From: Cytophagales bacterium
GTDB lineage: Bacteria; Bacteroidota; Bacteroidia; Cytophagales; Microscillaceae
Length of the DNA stretch: 55,898 nucleotides
Direction: 5' to 3'
Assembly (NCBI GenBank): GCA_031425615.1
Contig: JANPJR010000030.1
Coordinates: 274,492-330,389, forward strand
In this document: piece after piece, positions 2,412-36,351 of the stretch
Position numbering within the stretch: position 1 is the stretch's first letter
Layout: every line of letters begins with the position of its first letter
The notes under the pieces: model-generated
What the model was told of the DNA's origin: nothing
What the model saw: the letters and a program-made list of their open reading frames with translations, nothing else
Databases searched by the model: none
Translations under genes and position numbers: made by a program

Positions 2412-3083
2412 TTAAATCCCAAATATTTTCAACCCTATAATTACCGCTATTGGAATTGTAATATTATCTATTCCTTTGCCACTTACACCTTCTACAAAAG
2501 CAGTAAATAATGCAATACTTGCCATTGCTATTAAAAAATAAAAAGAAAAAGAAAGTTGTGCAATCAATACATTAAAGTACCCTATATGTAGCAAAAAACA
2601 GCTTACAAAAAATGCTATACTGCCCCCAAAACTCTTTTGGCTACTGCCTATTTTGTATGTTTTATAAGGAAAATTCTTTCCAAAAATTTCAGCTATTGGG
2701 TCGCACAAAGCAAGTGAAAGCATTGGTAGGTAAAAGAAATATAGTTTTTGCCCCTCAAAATCATACACAAGATAACAAAAATAAACTGCACAAGGGTATA
2801 ATAAACTACCTACTGAAAATCTCTTAATTGCATTAATGGATTTTAAAAAATTAAACCACAAACTGATTGATAATAGCACAAAAAACCCAGCACAAAGCAC
2901 CAATACAAGCCAATGATTTGCCAAAAATATTGGAAAAAGCAGGGTTATAATGCCTGTACCTATATGTACGATTTTGCGTGTTAGCTCTGCTTTCATGCGG
3001 AGAGCATGATACAAAAATTCTGCTACAATAAACAATAATAAAAACACTCCTCCCAATAAAAACATGTTGGCTATTTGTTGCAT
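2412..3083 (-). CDS. CTP-dependent polyprenol/diacylglycerol kinase family membrane protein (dolichol/phytol-kinase-like)
   Basis: 223 aa, about 6 TM helices, motifs KIVHIGTGI and CDPIAEIFGKNFPY...GGSIAFF typical of the DolK/PhyK / CDS-like cytidylyltransferase family. Confidence 0.55.
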   Translation of the reverse strand: MQQIANMFLLGGVFLLLFIVAEFLYHALRMKAELTRKIVHIGTGIITLLFPIFLANHWLVLVLCAGFFVLLSISLWFNFLKSINAIKRFSVGSLLYPCAVYFCYLVYDFEGQKLYFFYLPMLSLALCDPIAEIFGKNFPYKTYKIGSSQKSFGGSIAFFVSCFLLHIGYFNVLIAQLSFSFYFLIAMASIALFTAFVEGVSGKGIDNITIPIAVIIGLKIFGI

Positions 3084-3140
3084 ATCATTACATTTTTGAT
3101 GATTTTGGTTGAATTTTTAGGTTAAATTTTGGAGAAATAT

Positions 3141-4205
3141 TTACAAATAATCCACTACAAATTGATTATAGAAAAAACCTTTGTCTTGTGGAGCTAATTC
3201 TTGACAAATATCTTGCTGAAACGATAATTTTTGTGGCAATATGGAGGACATTATGCGGGAAACCATCAAATTCCAATATGCAAACTTTGCATTATTCTCT
3301 GCTCCTATCACAAGTTGCTGGGTTGTGTGTGCAAATACATCTTTGGGCATATATTCAAAGATATTTGACAAATTAAAAGCATCAAATTTGCCAAATAATG
3401 GAATAGCATCTTCTACTTTTCCCTGCTGTAACGTTATTTTATTGATATTTTTTTGAATAATATCAAAGTTTTGCGGTTGTAAATAGTGCGGTAATAGTTC
3501 CCCAAAATGCCCCAAGAGTGCAAAGTGCAACATTTCGTTTGATTGGGCGTAAATACTTTGCAAATGTTTAGCACTTTTTTGATAAATATACTGCGATACT
3601 GGTATTTTTACATGGTCAAAAAAACTTTTATCTCTGCCATATTTCTCCATAATGAACTTACTAAAAAATATTTTGAACATTAACCGCCATGCCCAAGTGT
3701 TCCACTTTTGATTATAGAAAATTTGTTGTTGCAATTCTTCTTTTTTTGCCAAAAGTCTTTGAATTTTTGTTTTATTATGCACAAAAGGCAATATTTTATG
3801 GCTAAAAAGATGAAAATAACGCTCAAATTTGCCTTGATATATTACACCTTTTTGTATCAAATCAAGGTTTTTTGTCCAATATTCATACGCATTTGGATAA
3901 GAGAAAGCATTTTTTAGTTTTTCAAGCACCAAAATTCTATTTTTTGAAGGCAAAAACCCTAAAAATTCTAAAATTTCTTGATACGAAAGCACCCTAAAAC
4001 ACGCTTGTTTGAGGGCTACTAAGTATAATTGTATGTGATTAATATCCATACATACTACTTTTTGTGGATTTGTTGTCAATAACGAAAAACTATTGTCCCC
4101 TGCTGAAGCTACAGATAAGATTTTTGCATTATCTGTTAGCGAAAGCCCTTTTAAAAGGACATTTGCATCTTCCCAACAGTTGGCATAGCGAAGAATATCG
4201 TGCAT
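3141..4205 (-). CDS. DUF3419 / BtaA-like protein (S-adenosylmethionine:diacylglycerol 3-amino-3-carboxypropyl transferase family)
   Basis: N-terminus MHDILRYANCWEDANVLLKGLSL and overall length match the COG5379/BtaA-like family. Confidence 0.6.
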   Translation of the reverse strand: MHDILRYANCWEDANVLLKGLSLTDNAKILSVASAGDNSFSLLTTNPQKVVCMDINHIQLYLVALKQACFRVLSYQEILEFLGFLPSKNRILVLEKLKNAFSYPNAYEYWTKNLDLIQKGVIYQGKFERYFHLFSHKILPFVHNKTKIQRLLAKKEELQQQIFYNQKWNTWAWRLMFKIFFSKFIMEKYGRDKSFFDHVKIPVSQYIYQKSAKHLQSIYAQSNEMLHFALLGHFGELLPHYLQPQNFDIIQKNINKITLQQGKVEDAIPLFGKFDAFNLSNIFEYMPKDVFAHTTQQLVIGAENNAKFAYWNLMVSRIMSSILPQKLSFQQDICQELAPQDKGFFYNQFVVDYL

Positions 4206-4268
4206 AAATGGTTTATTTTGATGCTAATTAAATTGTAATTTGTAGTAATTAGATTATAATTTGTGAGA

Positions 4269-6920
4269 TTAGGATTTTTTTATGATGTCTATTTTCCCTG
4301 TACTACCATTCATTTCTACGGTCATGCCTGTTTCCAATGTTTTCATTAGCCCTGTAATACCTACGATGCAAGGTTTCCCCATTTCCCTTGCCACTATCGC
4401 AGAATGACTAAGCAAACTGCCACGCTCCACCAAAATTCCGCTTGCTTGGGGAAACAATACCACCCACGAGGGGTCGGTGCTGTGTGTTACGAGTATGTTA
4501 TTGTTGAGTGCATTGCTATCATTTGGATTTTGTAGTACCTGTACTTGTTGTTTTACTACGCCTACACAACAACCTACGCCCTGTAAATCGCCTGTATGCT
4601 GAATATTTTTTTCTTGGCTGTGAAAATCATTTTGTTTTTGGTCATACACTATACCATACGTAGCAAATCGCTCTGAGGGTTGCCTGTCATCTGCATAAAA
4701 TTGAAATTCTTTTTTTCGTACATTTACCAATTCGTAAAGATTTTGAGTAACAGACGTACCGTTGATGTAAGCAAATATTTCTTCTTTGGTCAAATAAAAA
4801 ATATCTTTTTGGTCTGTAAGTAAATTTTGCTCAAAAAACTTTTTGCCAATATGCACAAATATCTCTCTTACTACGCCATACGCTCTTGTACGTTCGTATC
4901 TCAAATTTTCTCTTTGGCTTATCAAATCTCTTGCCTTGTCTAAAGTTTTGAAGAACTGTCTTTTTTTCCAAAAATTTACAAAAAAGTTTCTTCCAAGCAC
5001 ATTTTTTACTGTTTGTTCTGCGGTTTCTCTTATATTATTTTCAGTATTTTGGTTATAATGTTGGGTTGAAATGCCTTGTATCACATAATTTTTAAGAATC
5101 TTAATAAACAATGTAGGGTTTTGGTTGTATGACACACTTTCAAGTTTGAGTTCACCCACACATCTCTCCCCAAACATATATAAATAGTCGTCTATTTTTT
5201 GTTTTAGCTGAAAAAAATTATTTTTTTGGGAAAAATCATCTTGTTTATGGTTGGTTTCTTCTTGTAAAGTTGTCCAAATTGTATGTTCATTATTATCCAA
5301 AAACATTTTTTTGAGGGTTTCATGTTGTTGGATAAATGCTGACAAATGAATGGTTTGATGTATAGGTTGCGTAGAGATAATATTTTGACTTCCACAGAGC
5401 AAATCGTTGTGAATATTAGGATTTTTGTCGTGTAATTGTAGTTTTTCACACATTTTTTGCAACCTTCCAAAATAAATCATGGCAAAAAAATCATTCAATA
5501 GGGGGGCTTTCCATTCTTGTAGCAGGGTTTTTTCAAAATTAAGGTACAAATCTATTAGTTGGACGATATTTTTTTGTGTGTAGTCTATGTTTTTGTATTC
5601 TGCAATGGTATCATCCACAAGTTTTGTAAAGGTTTTTCTAATTTTGGGGAGGTTTTTTAATTTAAAAATCATGCCTACACCCATTTTTATAACCCTCCAC
5701 CAAGCGTATATTTTGGACATTTTGTAATCATCAGGCACATCAAAACGTTCTTTTACGCCCATCATTTTTTCCATGTAGCGTGCATTTATATTATAGCTGG
5801 GCAACATTGCAAGCATTTGATACCACGATTTCAAATTGTAGTAAATTCTTCCATTGAGCAACCCCAATGTATTGGCAAATACATGTTCATTTTGTGCAAT
5901 TACCTTTTTTTCCACACCAAGAAAACCTGCAAACAGTGAATAAGCACGCTGGTATGCTTTGCTCACAAACGAGAAAGTAAGAGGTGTAGTTACATTTGGA
6001 TAAGACTCAATAATATTGCTGTTGTCCCAAAGAATATAATTATTATCCTGTATTTTGGGTTTGATGGTGGTAATATTGCGTGTTTGGAGGAGGTATAATG
6101 TATCATTTTTGATGCAAAATTCTATGTCTTGGGGCTTTTTAAAATGTTTTTCCAAACGTTTCAAAACTTCCACAATCTCCAAGATGTGTTTTTCCGAGAT
6201 AGAAGGTTTATTTTGCAAATCTGCTTCTACTTCAGTCTTGGCTGTGTGATGTTTTTGGTGCGTATCTAATGAAATTTTGTGCGTTTTGGTTGCTATTTTG
6301 CTAATAATGTCTTTTGAAGTTGGTTTTTTCAAAGCATTTTTTACAATAAATGTATCAACATCTACACTTCCATTTACCACACCTTCCCCTACGCCCCAAG
6401 TACTATTGATAATGATTTCATTACGCATATCATTTGGATTATCATGTAGGATATTTACGCCAAAAGCCACGCCTGACACATCTGCATCTATCATTTCCTG
6501 AATAATGATGGCAGGTGTTTGAATATCATGCAGGATTCCGTGTTGTTTTTTGTAGGCTTTTACGCGGTCATTTTGGGGAGAAGCAAATACTTTTTGAATT
6601 TTTTCATGTATATTATCCAAATCCACATACAAAAAGCTATCAAACATACCCGCAAAGGAATATTTTTCGCCATCTTCCTCAACAGACGAAGAACGGACTG
6701 CGAAATAGGTTACATTTGGGAGTTCTTCTTTGACAAAAGTAGCAATTTTGGACGAGAGTTTTTCATTTTTTTGCTGAAAAATCACAATAAATGAAGGTAT
6801 AAGTAGCTTTAATTTGTGCATGGCGATAAGATTTTCAGCTTTATTGCCAACTTTAACAGGATTTTCTTGGATTTTTTTAGTGAACTTCAAAATTTTAATT
6901 GGTTTGGTTTTGAGAAACAA
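4269..6920 (-). CDS. PEP-utilising enzyme family protein (PpsA N-terminal ATP-grasp/PEP-pyruvate binding domain plus C-terminal mobile His domain; rifampin-phosphotransferase-like architecture)
   Basis: 883 aa. N-term KVGNKAENLIAM..., central VAFGVNILHDNP, C-term GCCVGVVKQQVQVL...VERGSLLSHSAIVAREMGKPCIVG, which is the PEP-utilising mobile-domain signature. Confidence 0.7.
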   Translation of the reverse strand: MFLKTKPIKILKFTKKIQENPVKVGNKAENLIAMHKLKLLIPSFIVIFQQKNEKLSSKIATFVKEELPNVTYFAVRSSSVEEDGEKYSFAGMFDSFLYVDLDNIHEKIQKVFASPQNDRVKAYKKQHGILHDIQTPAIIIQEMIDADVSGVAFGVNILHDNPNDMRNEIIINSTWGVGEGVVNGSVDVDTFIVKNALKKPTSKDIISKIATKTHKISLDTHQKHHTAKTEVEADLQNKPSISEKHILEIVEVLKRLEKHFKKPQDIEFCIKNDTLYLLQTRNITTIKPKIQDNNYILWDNSNIIESYPNVTTPLTFSFVSKAYQRAYSLFAGFLGVEKKVIAQNEHVFANTLGLLNGRIYYNLKSWYQMLAMLPSYNINARYMEKMMGVKERFDVPDDYKMSKIYAWWRVIKMGVGMIFKLKNLPKIRKTFTKLVDDTIAEYKNIDYTQKNIVQLIDLYLNFEKTLLQEWKAPLLNDFFAMIYFGRLQKMCEKLQLHDKNPNIHNDLLCGSQNIISTQPIHQTIHLSAFIQQHETLKKMFLDNNEHTIWTTLQEETNHKQDDFSQKNNFFQLKQKIDDYLYMFGERCVGELKLESVSYNQNPTLFIKILKNYVIQGISTQHYNQNTENNIRETAEQTVKNVLGRNFFVNFWKKRQFFKTLDKARDLISQRENLRYERTRAYGVVREIFVHIGKKFFEQNLLTDQKDIFYLTKEEIFAYINGTSVTQNLYELVNVRKKEFQFYADDRQPSERFATYGIVYDQKQNDFHSQEKNIQHTGDLQGVGCCVGVVKQQVQVLQNPNDSNALNNNILVTHSTDPSWVVLFPQASGILVERGSLLSHSAIVAREMGKPCIVGITGLMKTLETGMTVEMNGSTGKIDIIKKS

Positions 6921-33070: not shown

Positions 33071-33367
33071 TTAAAAAACCTCCATATACTCCTCCACCGA
33101 AAAAGCCACAGGTTTATCTGCAAAAAGGGTTTTGGTAAATGCCCAAACCCCTTTGAATAATTCAGAATTGCGGTATTTATCCAAATATTCTGTTGAAATC
33201 CAATGGCTGTGCGTACAAAAAATATTTGGATTGTGTGCATCACGCCACAACACTAATCGTAGGCAACCTTCAAAATGCCTAATTTTTTGCTTATTTTCCT
33301 CAAAATTTTGTAAAAAAGCCTCTACTTTATCTTCTTGAAAAGTAAGACGTACAATGCGAATAATCAT
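33071..33367 (-). CDS. antibiotic-biosynthesis-monooxygenase (ABM) domain protein
   Basis: MIIRIVRLTFQEDKVEAFLQNF...FEGCLRLVLWRDAHNPNIFCTHSHWIS is an ABM fold pattern. The ORF track extends to 33403 but that extension overlaps the dispersed repeat, so the internal Met is preferred. Confidence 0.6.
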   Translation of the reverse strand: MIIRIVRLTFQEDKVEAFLQNFEENKQKIRHFEGCLRLVLWRDAHNPNIFCTHSHWISTEYLDKYRNSELFKGVWAFTKTLFADKPVAFSVEEYMEVF

Positions 33368-33695
33368 AAAAATAATATCAGTTATCAGTTTTTGAGTTGT
33401 CAATTTAAAAATATTTTTTCAAAAATAAATGATTTTCTACACTTTATTCCTAAAATTATCGCTAAAAATTCAATTTCAATTTTAATAAAATTATTTTTTT
33501 GGATTTGTTCCCTTTGAAGGTTAGAGACTTAATCACTACAAAAAAAATTATTTTTCATTTCCTTTTAACCAAAAAAAACGTTTATATTTGTAGTTATTTT
33601 TTTATCTTGAAAATGAAAAATAATTGTTTTTATTTTTAACAAAATTTTAAAAAATAAACAAATTAAATTTTTAGACTTTTAAAACGCATCAAAAA

Positions 33696-36263
33696 ATGGC
33701 AGGCAAAAATCAAAATTCAGGTATTTCTAATGTAATAGGCAAACTCCAACCACAGGCATTGGATTTGGAGGAATCTGTATTGGGAGCGTTAATGATTGAA
33801 AAAGACGCACTCAATTTGGTGATTGATACCCTGCGTCCTGAAAGTTTTTATAAGCCTGCACACCAAGAAATTTATAGGGCAATTTTTGACCTTTTTGCAA
33901 GCTCTCAGCCTATTGACTTCAAAATGGTAGTGCAACAACTCCGCAAAAATGGCAAAATAGACCTCGTAGGCGGTGCCAATTATGTAATGCAACTCACAAG
34001 TGGCGTGCAATCGTCTGCCAATATAGAAGCGCATGCAAGGATTATCACAGAACAGGCAATCAAGAGAGAACTTATACAAATATCTTCCGAAATACACAAA
34101 GATTCGCTTGATGAAGGAAAAGATATTTTTGACCTTTTAGACCAAACAGAGCAAAAACTTTTTCAGGTTTCAGAGAGCAATATTCGAAAGCAATATTCCA
34201 CTATGGGCAACCTTGTATCTCAAGCCCTCAAAGAACTCGAAGACCGTCGCCAACTCAAAGACGGTCTTACAGGCGTTCCTACAGGTTTTAGTGATTTGGA
34301 TAGGATTACAGGCGGGTTTCAAAAATCGGATTTAATCATACTCGCAGCGAGGCCAGCCATGGGCAAGTGCCACGCACTTGGCACGATTATTGTTATGTGG
34401 GACGGAACGCTCAAAAAAGTAGAGGATATTGTGGTGGGAGATGTGCTAATGGGTGATGATTCTACCCCAAGAAAAGTACTTTCATTGGCTCGTGGGCGTG
34501 AAATGATGTACTGGGTTAGGCAAAATAAAGGGGTGGATTATCGGGTAAATGAAAGCCATATTTTATCCTTAAAAAGAAGCAGAACAGAATACAAACATAA
34601 AAATGGCGATATTTTAGACATTGAATTAAAAGAATTTTTACAAAAAAGTAAAAAATTTAAAAGCAATTATAAAGGATATAGGGTTGCAGTTGAGTTTGAG
34701 GAAAAAACCACCACCATAGAACCTTATTTTTTAGGGCTTTGGTTGGGTGCTGGAAACTCCAATTCTGCCCAAATTACAAACACTGATGAGGAGGTTAAAA
34801 ACTATCTTTATGAATATGGAGACAGACTAAAAATCCCTGTTTCTGTCAGTATTTTAAATAATAATCCTAAACACACAAGATATAAACTGCACAAAGATTA
34901 TGATAATGATTGGTCGTTTTTAGAATTTGAAATCAATAGGTTAAATTTAAGAAACAACAAACACATTCCTCACCATTATTTGGTGAACAATACCCAAAAA
35001 AGGTTAGAGTTATTGGCGGGTTTAGTAGATAGTGATGGGCATTATTTGAAAGGTAGCAATGGGTACGAGATTACCTTTAAAAACAAACATCTTGCCCAAC
35101 AGCTTAAATTTTTGGTAGATTCGCTTGGTTTTCGTGCCTCTTTAATTCCTAAAAAAGCAACCATCAAAAGCATAAATTACGAAACAGAGGTATATCGTGT
35201 GCGTTTTTTTGGTGATGTGGATAAAATCCCAGCAAGAATCCCTCGCAAAAAAGCCCTTCCTTGGCGTGATACACATCGTACTTGGCTACAAACGGGTTTT
35301 AAGATAGAAAAAGACATAATAGATGATTATTATGGTTTTGTGATAGATGGCAATCACAGATTTTTGTTGGAGGATATGACTGTGGTGCATAATACTGCGT
35401 TTTCGCTTTCATTGTTGCGAAATGCTGCAGTAGATTTTGGCAAACCTTGTGCCTTTTTTTCATTGGAAATGTCAGAAATACAGCTTGTAAATCGTCTTTT
35501 GTCAGGTGAGGCAGAGGTAGAAAGTGACAAAATAAGACGTGGCAGAATGGAAGAGTGGGAATGGCTAAAAATCCACGAAAAAACCCAAAAACTTAGAGAA
35601 TCACCCATTTTTATTGACGATACGCCTGCTATTTCTTTACTTGAATTGCGCGCAAAATGTAGGCGTTTGAAAGCACAACACGATATACAGCTGATAGTGG
35701 TAGATTATCTCCAACTTATGACCGCTTCCACAGGCAAAAATACAATGGGTAATCGCGAGCAAGAGATTTCTACGATTTCACGTGGATTAAAAATGATCGC
35801 AAAAGAACTTAATGTACCTGTAATTGCCTTAGCACAGCTCAGTAGGGCGGTTGAAACAAGGGGAGGCGAAAAAAAACCGCAACTTTCTGACCTTAGGGAA
35901 TCTGGCTCATTGGAACAAGATGCTGATATTGTGATTTTCCTATATCGTCCAGAATATTACGGTTTCGCAACTGATGCAGAAGGAAACGCAACCAAAGATG
36001 TAGGCGAAGTAATCATTGCAAAACACCGTAACGGTTCGCTGGACACGGTTAAATTAAAATTTATTGGACGATACACTAAATTTGAAAACTTAGAAGGGGC
36101 TAATTTTATGCCTCGTACCAACAATACACAAGCTACTACACAACCAATTTTTAATAGTAAAATCAATAATACTACACCAACCACACAACAAAACCCAAAT
36201 ACCCAAGACATGAATGGATTCCAAAATAATACACCAAGATTAGATGATGAACCACCTTTTTAA
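33696..36263 (+). CDS. dnaB: replicative DNA helicase DnaB, interrupted by an in-frame intein
   Basis: N-terminal DnaB domain (LDLEESVLGALMIE...). Walker A LAARPAMGK|C is interrupted. The extein resumes ...HN|TAFSLSLLRNAAV. Downstream are Walker B LIVVDYLQLM and RecA-like motifs (LAQLSRAVE, SGSLEQDADIV). Low-complexity C-terminal tail. Confidence 0.9.
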   Translation: MAGKNQNSGISNVIGKLQPQALDLEESVLGALMIEKDALNLVIDTLRPESFYKPAHQEIYRAIFDLFASSQPIDFKMVVQQLRKNGKIDLVGGANYVMQLTSGVQSSANIEAHARIITEQAIKRELIQISSEIHKDSLDEGKDIFDLLDQTEQKLFQVSESNIRKQYSTMGNLVSQALKELEDRRQLKDGLTGVPTGFSDLDRITGGFQKSDLIILAARPAMGKCHALGTIIVMWDGTLKKVEDIVVGDVLMGDDSTPRKVLSLARGREMMYWVRQNKGVDYRVNESHILSLKRSRTEYKHKNGDILDIELKEFLQKSKKFKSNYKGYRVAVEFEEKTTTIEPYFLGLWLGAGNSNSAQITNTDEEVKNYLYEYGDRLKIPVSVSILNNNPKHTRYKLHKDYDNDWSFLEFEINRLNLRNNKHIPHHYLVNNTQKRLELLAGLVDSDGHYLKGSNGYEITFKNKHLAQQLKFLVDSLGFRASLIPKKATIKSINYETEVYRVRFFGDVDKIPARIPRKKALPWRDTHRTWLQTGFKIEKDIIDDYYGFVIDGNHRFLLEDMTVVHNTAFSLSLLRNAAVDFGKPCAFFSLEMSEIQLVNRLLSGEAEVESDKIRRGRMEEWEWLKIHEKTQKLRESPIFIDDTPAISLLELRAKCRRLKAQHDIQLIVVDYLQLMTASTGKNTMGNREQEISTISRGLKMIAKELNVPVIALAQLSRAVETRGGEKKPQLSDLRESGSLEQDADIVIFLYRPEYYGFATDAEGNATKDVGEVIIAKHRNGSLDTVKLKFIGRYTKFENLEGANFMPRTNNTQATTQPIFNSKINNTTPTTQQNPNTQDMNGFQNNTPRLDDEPPF
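34368..35393 (+). mobile_element. DnaB intein (342 aa) carrying a LAGLIDADG-type homing-endonuclease domain
   Basis: Begins Cys (CHALGTIIVMWDG, block A) and ends VVHN followed by extein Thr. Internal YFLGLWLGAGNS (degenerate) and LLAGLVDSDGHY (canonical LAGLIDADG). Length divisible by 3; excision restores GKT of the P-loop. Confidence 0.8.
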
Positions 36264-36351
36264 AATTTAGCTAAAAAATGCAATAACCAATCATGGATTT
36301 ATCACAAAAATATATGTACTTTTGCTTTTAAACTAAACTTTCATTTTATCC

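Follow-up and report, generated by a model that had tools for sequence, protein, structure and literature searches.

We analysed a stretch of 55,898 nucleotides from a Cytophagales bacterium of the Microscillaceae (assembly GCA_031425615.1, contig JANPJR010000030.1, positions 274,492 to 330,389 of the forward strand), which is called the window below and from whose first letter all positions are counted. The window carries a gene for the replicative DNA helicase DnaB (33696–36263, plus strand), which encodes a precursor of 855 amino acids (aa) followed by a stop codon and contains one intein of 342 aa (34368–35393, plus strand; aa 225–566 of the precursor). In the intein, a LAGLIDADG endonuclease domain interrupts a HINT domain. 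We consider it very probable that this is a class-1 intein of the PI-SceI type at the DnaB-b site, in which splicing is intact and the endonuclease has been crippled by a single substitution (D128A), so that the element is now an immobile passenger of the helicase gene.

The assignment of the gene is based on the list of open reading frames (ORFs), Pfam and NCBIfam. Pfam found the DnaB N-terminal domain (2.6e-31) and DnaB_C (1.2e-101), the latter in two stretches that flank the insert, and the NCBIfam model TIGR00665 for the replicative helicase DnaB covered residues 18–800 with 537 bits against a cutoff of 385. The reading frame is open across all 855 codons, and a look-up of the precursor by its exact sequence returned no recorded protein. 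The N-extein (aa 1–224; 33696–34367, plus strand) ends with ...LIILAARPAMGK, which is the first half of Walker A, while the C-extein (aa 567–855 and the stop codon; 35394–36263, plus strand) holds the remainder of the RecA-like ATPase domain. When joined, the exteins give a DnaB of 513 aa, the length which the preliminary description had stated and which we recomputed from the ORF, and Walker A is rebuilt as ARPAMGKTAF.

Identity of the Insert

The junctions were located in the translation at AMGK/C...VVHN/T (a slash marks a junction here and below), with Cys1 at aa 225 (nucleotide 34368) and the terminal Asn at aa 566 (nucleotide 35393). An insert of 342 aa that begins with Cys and ends with His-Asn before a Thr had been proposed from the sequence at this place, and the proposal was borne out to the base. 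Pfam searches of the insert matched Hom_end_hint (1.6e-22; 81 bits against a cutoff of 32), Hom_end (9.2e-12) and LAGLIDADG_3 (3.5e-7). Among solved structures the best sequence match was PI-SceI (E 2.7e-20), which aligns as block A and then blocks C–G.

The fold agreed with these matches. An AlphaFold2 model of the intein, for which the input was an alignment of 70 sequences, had a mean predicted local distance difference test (pLDDT) score of 96.1 and a predicted template modelling (pTM) score of 0.93. When this model was compared with the PDB by Foldseek, chains of PI-SceI came out on top (E about 1e-27 to 1e-22, best 3e-27) with template modelling (TM) scores, normalised to the query (TMq), of 0.71–0.82, the best matches being at 0.78–0.82. 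They were followed by TliVMA, PI-PfuI, the Prp8 inteins and free-standing LAGLIDADG enzymes including I-DmoI and I-Tsp061I.

The residues for class-1 splicing are complete, namely Cys1, N61-x-x-H64, His341-Asn342 and Thr+1. Block A (CHALGTIIVMWDG; 34368–34406, plus strand) starts with Cys1, the N-terminal nucleophile, and aligns with PI-SceI residues 1–54; in the 70-sequence alignment, which is also the source of the invariant residues given below, C1 and T6 are invariant and G13 is nearly so. The core of block B (34548–34559, plus strand) reads N61-E-S-H64, an NxxH variant of TxxH in which H64 is invariant; the Asn occurs in 117 and the His in 118 of 121 family members. Blocks F and G (DIIDDYYGFVIDGNHRFLLEDMTVVHN; 35313–35393, plus strand) include the penultimate His341 and the terminal Asn342, both invariant together with G323 and D336, and their sequence (DDYYGF...FLL...VVHN) aligns with the PI-SceI C-terminus ...DDYYGITL..FLL..VVVHN. 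The nucleophile of the C-extein is Thr+1 (35394–35396, plus strand), which doubles as the Walker A Thr (GKT); residue +1 is Thr or Ser in nearly all family members.

To define conserved columns, we used an alignment of 112 inteins and a threshold of at least 85%, which gave 80 columns (48 in HINT and 32 in the endonuclease). The window intein departs from the consensus at none of the 48 HINT columns. Since Cys1 is present and block F (DDYYGFVIDGNHRFLL) has no Cys, the insert belongs to class 1 and not to class 3. The domain matches, the fold and the splicing residues together indicate that it is a bona fide HINT plus LAGLIDADG intein and not a non-splicing domain. The comparison with intein families (Pfam, PI-SceI and the family alignment), which had been proposed as the check on the idea of an intein, thus found the splicing blocks in place, along with the HINT fold. 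A profile of the family scored 482 bits on this intein and nothing elsewhere, and no second intein or intein fragment was found in the window.

Insertion Site and Intein-Less Allele

The insertion separates the invariant Lys of the Walker A P-loop from its Thr (...LIILAARPAMGK/C...HN/TAFSLSLL). Novikova et al. (PMC4760082) and Kelley et al. (PMC6195587) designated this insertion point in the P-loop of DnaB as site b, and Kelley et al. 2016 (PMC5050341) named the Lys/Thr position the "classic" P-loop intein insertion. The window intein occupies DnaB-b, and the location in Walker A that had been noted from the sequence agrees with all three reports. The other common site of the protein, DnaB site a (motif H4, RESG/SLEQDAD), is empty in the window C-extein.

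A comparison of dnaB across related genomes had also been suggested. A genome scan with one genome per species yielded 43 related dnaB loci, and 42 of them have a homologous intein at the identical DnaB position. They represent at least six bacterial lineages and come from Saprospiraceae, Chitinophagales, Cytophagales, Ignavibacteria, Rhodothermales, Campylobacterales and one cyanobacterium. The remaining locus, L039, comes from a metagenome-assembled genome (MAG) of Cytophagales and encodes an intein-less DnaB that is 92% identical to the window exteins and reads ARPAMGK/TAFSLSLL. At the DNA level, L039 aligns to window positions 33540–34367 and 35391–36270 with 79–82% identity and to nothing between them; its positions 2793–3678 match the N-extein side and 3676–4564 the C-extein side. 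The alignment breaks at 34367/35391, i.e., at the predicted junctions, and this clean break is direct evidence that 34368–35393 is a discrete insertion.

The empty site of L039 gives a candidate homing target, in which ...AGGCCAGCGATGGGCAAG is joined directly to ACAGCTTTTTCCCTTTC..., and this empty-allele sequence is likely to correspond to the homing site of the window intein. Apart from dnaB, nothing matched and no synteny was found between the window and L039, and L039 is a related but rearranged genome and not a near-isogenic strain.

These results also bear on whether the insert might not splice at all, or whether this dnaB might be a pseudogene with an intact dnaB elsewhere in the genome. 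Our view was limited to the 56-kb window, and a second dnaB may lie outside it. However, the splicing residues are all present and conserved, the ORF is open over 855 codons, an intact orthologue shares 92% identity with the exteins, and 42 other genomes have the arrangement. In addition, with 342 aa inside it, the Walker A loop could not work unless the insert were spliced out. We rejected this explanation on the intact splicing residues, the open ORF and the conserved exteins, and regard it as scarcely credible.

Base composition was considered as a sign of recent transfer and was dropped. The GC content is 35.4% in the intein and 39.9% in the extein, while the GC content at third codon positions (GC3) is equal (0.316 and 0.320), both values lying inside the range of the window genes, and there is no signal. 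The equal GC3 fits long residence, or a donor with similar composition.

Twelve of the related dnaB genes (L011–L016, L024, L026, L027, L029, L041 and L042) carry a site-b intein together with a site-a intein (RESG/C). The site-a inteins of those loci are either full-length (about 430 aa) or mini-inteins (143–144 aa).

Homing Endonuclease Domain

The LAGLIDADG homing-endonuclease domain spans approximately intein aa 111–284 (34698–35219, plus strand), as supported by Pfam (Hom_end, LAGLIDADG_3), and the model places its two helices at 119–128 and 209–223. Both LAGLIDADG-like blocks of the preliminary description were found, LGLWLGAGN at intein aa 122–130 and LAGLVDSDG at aa 216–224. Block C, the first helix (IEPYFLGLWLGAGNS; 34716–34760, plus strand), aligns with PI-SceI 207–219, and Y120, G123, W125 and G127 are invariant in it. 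Block E, the second helix (KRLELLAGLVDSDGHY; 34998–35045, plus strand), retains the catalytic Asp223 (35034–35036), which aligns with PI-SceI D326 and whose column is Asp in 112 of 121 family members. The nearly invariant Lys198 of block D (34959–34961, plus strand), the equivalent of PI-SceI K301 in an alignment to ...KNIP..., is retained as well.

The acidic D/E residue at the bottom of each LAGLIDADG helix is a catalytic metal ligand (PMC6294521). The window intein has D223 in the second helix, in line with what had been read from the letters, and Ala128 in the first, where the lack of an acidic residue had likewise been noticed. The Ala128 codon GCT (34749–34751, plus strand) replaces the metal-binding Asp that corresponds to PI-SceI D218. 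This position is Asp in 115 of 121 relatives, in 105 of 112, and in 99 of 100 further metagenomic and viral loci. The two-motif LAGLIDADG fold is supported by the model helices, Pfam and Foldseek, and the domain is therefore a LAGLIDADG member by descent and fold that lacks one half of the catalytic pair.

The endonuclease had been described as partly degenerate and perhaps decaying while splicing was retained. One catalytic Asp is indeed lost, but the damage was overstated: the window intein departs from the consensus at only 1 of the 80 conserved columns, position 128, with the other 31 endonuclease positions intact and K198 kept. The identity to relatives is lower in the endonuclease than in HINT, with an endonuclease/HINT ratio of 0.708 against a median of 0.781 (rank 7 of 67), which is a mild excess of divergence. 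Judged from these alignments, the domain probably has a single inactivating substitution at a catalytic site and is otherwise intact.

Independent changes of the catalytic Asp residues were seen in other DnaB-b inteins. Both residues are lost in L010 and in L071/L072; L008/L056 have Lys and L011 has Glu in block C, and L007 has Asn in block E. With a ratio of 0.50, L010 has the most diverged endonuclease domain.

The change at position 128 needs only one transversion (GAT to GCT), and it is the sole departure at any conserved column. This would fit a sequencing or assembly error or a minority variant, in which case the true intein would have Asp128 and a fully active homing endonuclease. On the other hand, the local sequence is normal, with no homopolymer nearby and an intact frame, and the same position has been independently substituted in other family members, so such alleles do exist. 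We consider an artefact distinctly unlikely.

If the substitution is real, one active site (D223, K198) is left, and the protein might act as a strand-specific nickase whose nick-induced recombination supports homing at reduced efficiency. The residues D218 and D326 of PI-SceI were reportedly assigned by Christ et al. in 1999 (EMBO J) to separate catalytic centres for the two strands. Single active-site point mutations turn LAGLIDADG enzymes into site-specific nickases (PMC3943268), and the intact state of all other conserved endonuclease residues would be hard to keep without selection. Against a nickase, the position is Asp in about 94–99% of the family, so that a nickase state is not the selected norm. 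Moreover, other members without this Asp also lost the second one and diverged strongly (L010 at a ratio of 0.50, and L071/L072 with both lost), which suggests a path to decay. We regard a nickase as unlikely, and prefer to see the D128A intein as an element on its way to losing the endonuclease.

Comparison with Known Inteins

PI-SceI, the intein of S. cerevisiae VMA1 (PDB 1VDE, 1LWS and 1EF0), is the closest solved relative by both sequence and fold. It shares with the window intein the nesting of a two-motif LAGLIDADG domain within HINT, the Hom_end_hint and Hom_end matches in Pfam, the block F/G signature DDYYG...FLL...VVHN and the Lys of block D. In contrast, its host is a eukaryotic V-ATPase and its site, VMA-a, lies outside the P-loop (PMC8966425); it has Asp at 218 where the window intein has Ala; and it is 454 aa long, whereas the window intein has 342 aa. 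Roughly 110 aa are missing between blocks B and C, and one reading of the alignment is that they correspond to the DNA recognition region of PI-SceI.

The inteins at the same site of mycobacterial DnaB (M. smegmatis DnaBi1 and M. leprae; PMC6195587, PMC4760082) resemble the window intein in host, in P-loop site b and in the use of the +1 P-loop Ser/Thr as a splicing nucleophile. Unlike the window intein, they are class-3 mini-inteins without an N-terminal Cys nucleophile and without an endonuclease, and they have a WCT triplet with the block F Cys (class definition in PMC6195587), while the window intein, a class-1 element, has both Cys1 and a complete LAGLIDADG domain. The window intein is of a different, PI-SceI-like lineage. 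Ssp and Rma DnaB inteins are like it in the DnaB host, in class 1 and in wide horizontal spread, but they occupy site a (motif H4, RESG/S).

The mycobacterial case raises the question of whether the intein was recruited to serve as a post-translational switch of replication, with splicing conditional on redox state, metal or temperature, and with the endonuclease domain kept for structure or for DNA binding. Such a role would be compatible with the loss of cleavage that we favour. Splicing of the M. smegmatis DnaB intein at the same site is described as sensitive to oxidative stress (PMC6195587) and to zinc (PMC7360933); the catalytic Cys1 of the window intein is potentially redox-sensitive, and its endonuclease domain is conserved except for D128. 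However, the mycobacterial intein is a class-3 mini-intein of another lineage, and the window copy has no second conserved Cys or other copy-specific sensor feature. The distribution of the family, in viruses and in many unrelated nucleoside triphosphatases (NTPases), is that of a selfish element, and L039, with a 92% identical DnaB, does without the intein, which is hence dispensable. A switch seems to us highly unlikely.

The best functional precedent for the state of the window endonuclease is PhoVMA of Pyrococcus horikoshii (site VMA-b). This intein, too, sits in the P-loop of an ATPase, has kept the LAGLIDADG architecture and is missing a catalytic Asp. In vitro, PhoVMA left its homing-site substrate uncut, and cleavage was restored when active-site residues were grafted back (PMC8966425). 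The two differ in that PhoVMA is archaeal and sits in another host protein, and its loss is a deletion that shortens block E plus further degeneration, whereas the loss in the window is one substitution in block C. Its fold is also more distant, as the related TliVMA reached a TMq of only 0.61–0.63 in the Foldseek comparison with the window model.

Insertions in P-loops are known from other systems. Phage terminases carry the "classic" Lys/Thr insertion (PMC5050341), as the window intein does, and the P-loop-hopping inteins of viruses and Anaeramoeba (cluster 1) were described by Gallot-Lavallee et al. 2023 (PMC10710043), whose published pattern is seen in the window family. The papers cited describe the phenomenon and not this DnaB-b clade specifically, and the likeness to Anaeramoeba cluster 1 is one of pattern.

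Proposed Splicing and Loss of Mobility

After translation, Cys1 would undergo an N-S acyl shift, Thr+1 would attack the thioester, and cyclisation of Asn342 would release the intein. An O-N shift would then regenerate ...ARPAMGK-TAF..., yielding a DnaB of 513 aa whose ATP-binding loop is whole. The precursor is expected to be unable to bind or hydrolyse ATP normally, which would make splicing obligatory and would place the splicing residues under strong purifying selection. From the essential role of dnaB and the interruption of its Walker A loop, we infer that the intein splices efficiently.

The endonuclease would originally have driven homing into empty dnaB alleles and would then have lost the metal-binding Asp of the first helix (D128A), with all else kept. 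Judged from its active-site residues, the window endonuclease has most likely lost the ability to make double-strand breaks. As an immobile and vertically inherited element, the intein would now be just entering the degeneration phase of the homing cycle, a cycle which is ascribed to Goddard and Burt 1999 where PMC10710043 cites them.

Several points weigh against this interpretation. Both splicing and the loss of cleavage are inferred from sequence. All conserved endonuclease residues except D128 are kept, which is unexpected after a long freedom from selection and is compatible with a loss in the very recent past or with a function that has been retained, and the endonuclease/HINT ratio is just mildly low (0.708 against 0.781). 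The difference is a single A-to-C change that could come from a sequencing or assembly error or from a minor variant. No intein relative closer than 62–63% was found, which is too distant for dating D128A.

A retained function would mean that the endonuclease domain has stayed under selection after the loss of one catalytic centre, for a non-cleaving or a nicking role, and we find this very doubtful. If it were true, the domain might be a site-specific nickase that drives low-toxicity homing into the P-loop DNA of dnaB or, alternatively, a DNA-binding module that ties splicing of the helicase to the state of the DNA or of replication.

In practical terms, this dnaB should be annotated as an intein-containing gene with a mature product of 513 aa and not as an 855-aa helicase. 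Beyond annotation, the significance is small, as the intein adds one divergent member to a very large and already described class of P-loop inteins. With an endonuclease crippled by D128A alone, it would still be a clean natural example of the first step in the loss of a homing endonuclease. The homing-cycle model could be tested simply with an A128D revertant, which might also provide a new rare-cutting enzyme or nickase with the dnaB Walker A coding sequence as its target.

Spread of the Intein Family

An exhaustive search returned 3,929 representatives of 50%-identity clusters at E<=1e-30, of which the best had 63% identity across the full intein. The closest intein relative found is about 62–64% identical to the window intein (maximum of 62% in the genome scan and of 63–64% in the representative search), and in a metagenome scan the closest intein was at most 60% identical over its full length. 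Because the relatives are this divergent, synonymous sites are saturated, and hence no ratio of nonsynonymous to synonymous substitution rates is given. The proteins listed by a word-indexed homologue search were all shorter than 600 aa, so its matches to intein-containing DnaB are fragments, which looks like a property of the tool or index and not of the biology. The full-length context was taken from the genome loci and the exhaustive representative search, where the proteins have 750–870 aa.

Identity of the inteins to the window intein was 48–62% regardless of the identity of their exteins (31–64%). In Campylobacterales, for instance, the exteins are about 37% identical to those of the window, whereas the inteins are 54–61% identical. 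Over all pairs, intein identity stays at about 58% for exteins from less than 45% to 70% and increases only among close relatives. Such decoupling of intein and extein is the pattern left when inteins pass horizontally from phylum to phylum and are then inherited vertically inside each clade.

The same intein lineage (36–47% identity) was found in PhoH, thymidine kinase, AAA_30/RecD-like, AAA_33, ResIII and other NTPases. In these non-DnaB proteins the insertion is at GK/T or GK/S and, less often, after the Gly that is followed by Ser, Thr or Cys and then GK (e.g., G/SGK). At least 581 copies were present in viral contigs of IMG/VR, including MAGs of giant viruses. The spread of inteins among the P-loops of non-homologous proteins, with viruses as vectors, has already been described (PMC10710043; PMC5050341), and our finding of one lineage at the Walker A motif of many NTPases and abundant in viruses agrees with these reports and adds nothing new to them.

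One further relative is a mini-intein of 140 aa (L075:3001–3420; CHKKGT...TVCHN/S) in the P-loop GGIGLGK/S of a protein other than DnaB. In its splicing halves it shares 65% identity with the window intein, and its endonuclease domain is wholly deleted.

Genomic Setting of dnaB

The neighbours of dnaB in the window encode a HAMP-GAF-PAS-SpoIIE phosphatase, an ABM monooxygenase, an SDR protein and HslV. These are housekeeping genes, and the window dnaB is the chromosomal copy and not one of a phage.

Directly upstream of dnaB is an AT-rich intergenic stretch (33350–33650; GC 18–26%). It is bounded on the other side by the ABM-domain gene (33071–33403, minus strand), which is divergent from dnaB, and it is probably a shared promoter region only.

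The C-terminus of the window DnaB (36100–36260) has a low-complexity linker rich in Gln, Asn and Thr and then ends with ...RLDDEPPF. Nearly all Bacteroidota DnaB loci among L001–L041 share an acidic ending of this kind (DEDIPF, DDIPF, DDVPF, DDAPF, EEPPF or DDEVPF), and the ending is DEDII in Ignavibacteria and ELPPI in Campylobacterales. The C-terminal end of E. coli SSB is DDDIPF. In its residues, the tail of Bacteroidota DnaB resembles this acidic tip of SSB, and a brief search of the literature turned up no report of such a tail on DnaB. Proteins whose usual binding partner is the SSB tip might use it as a docking motif.

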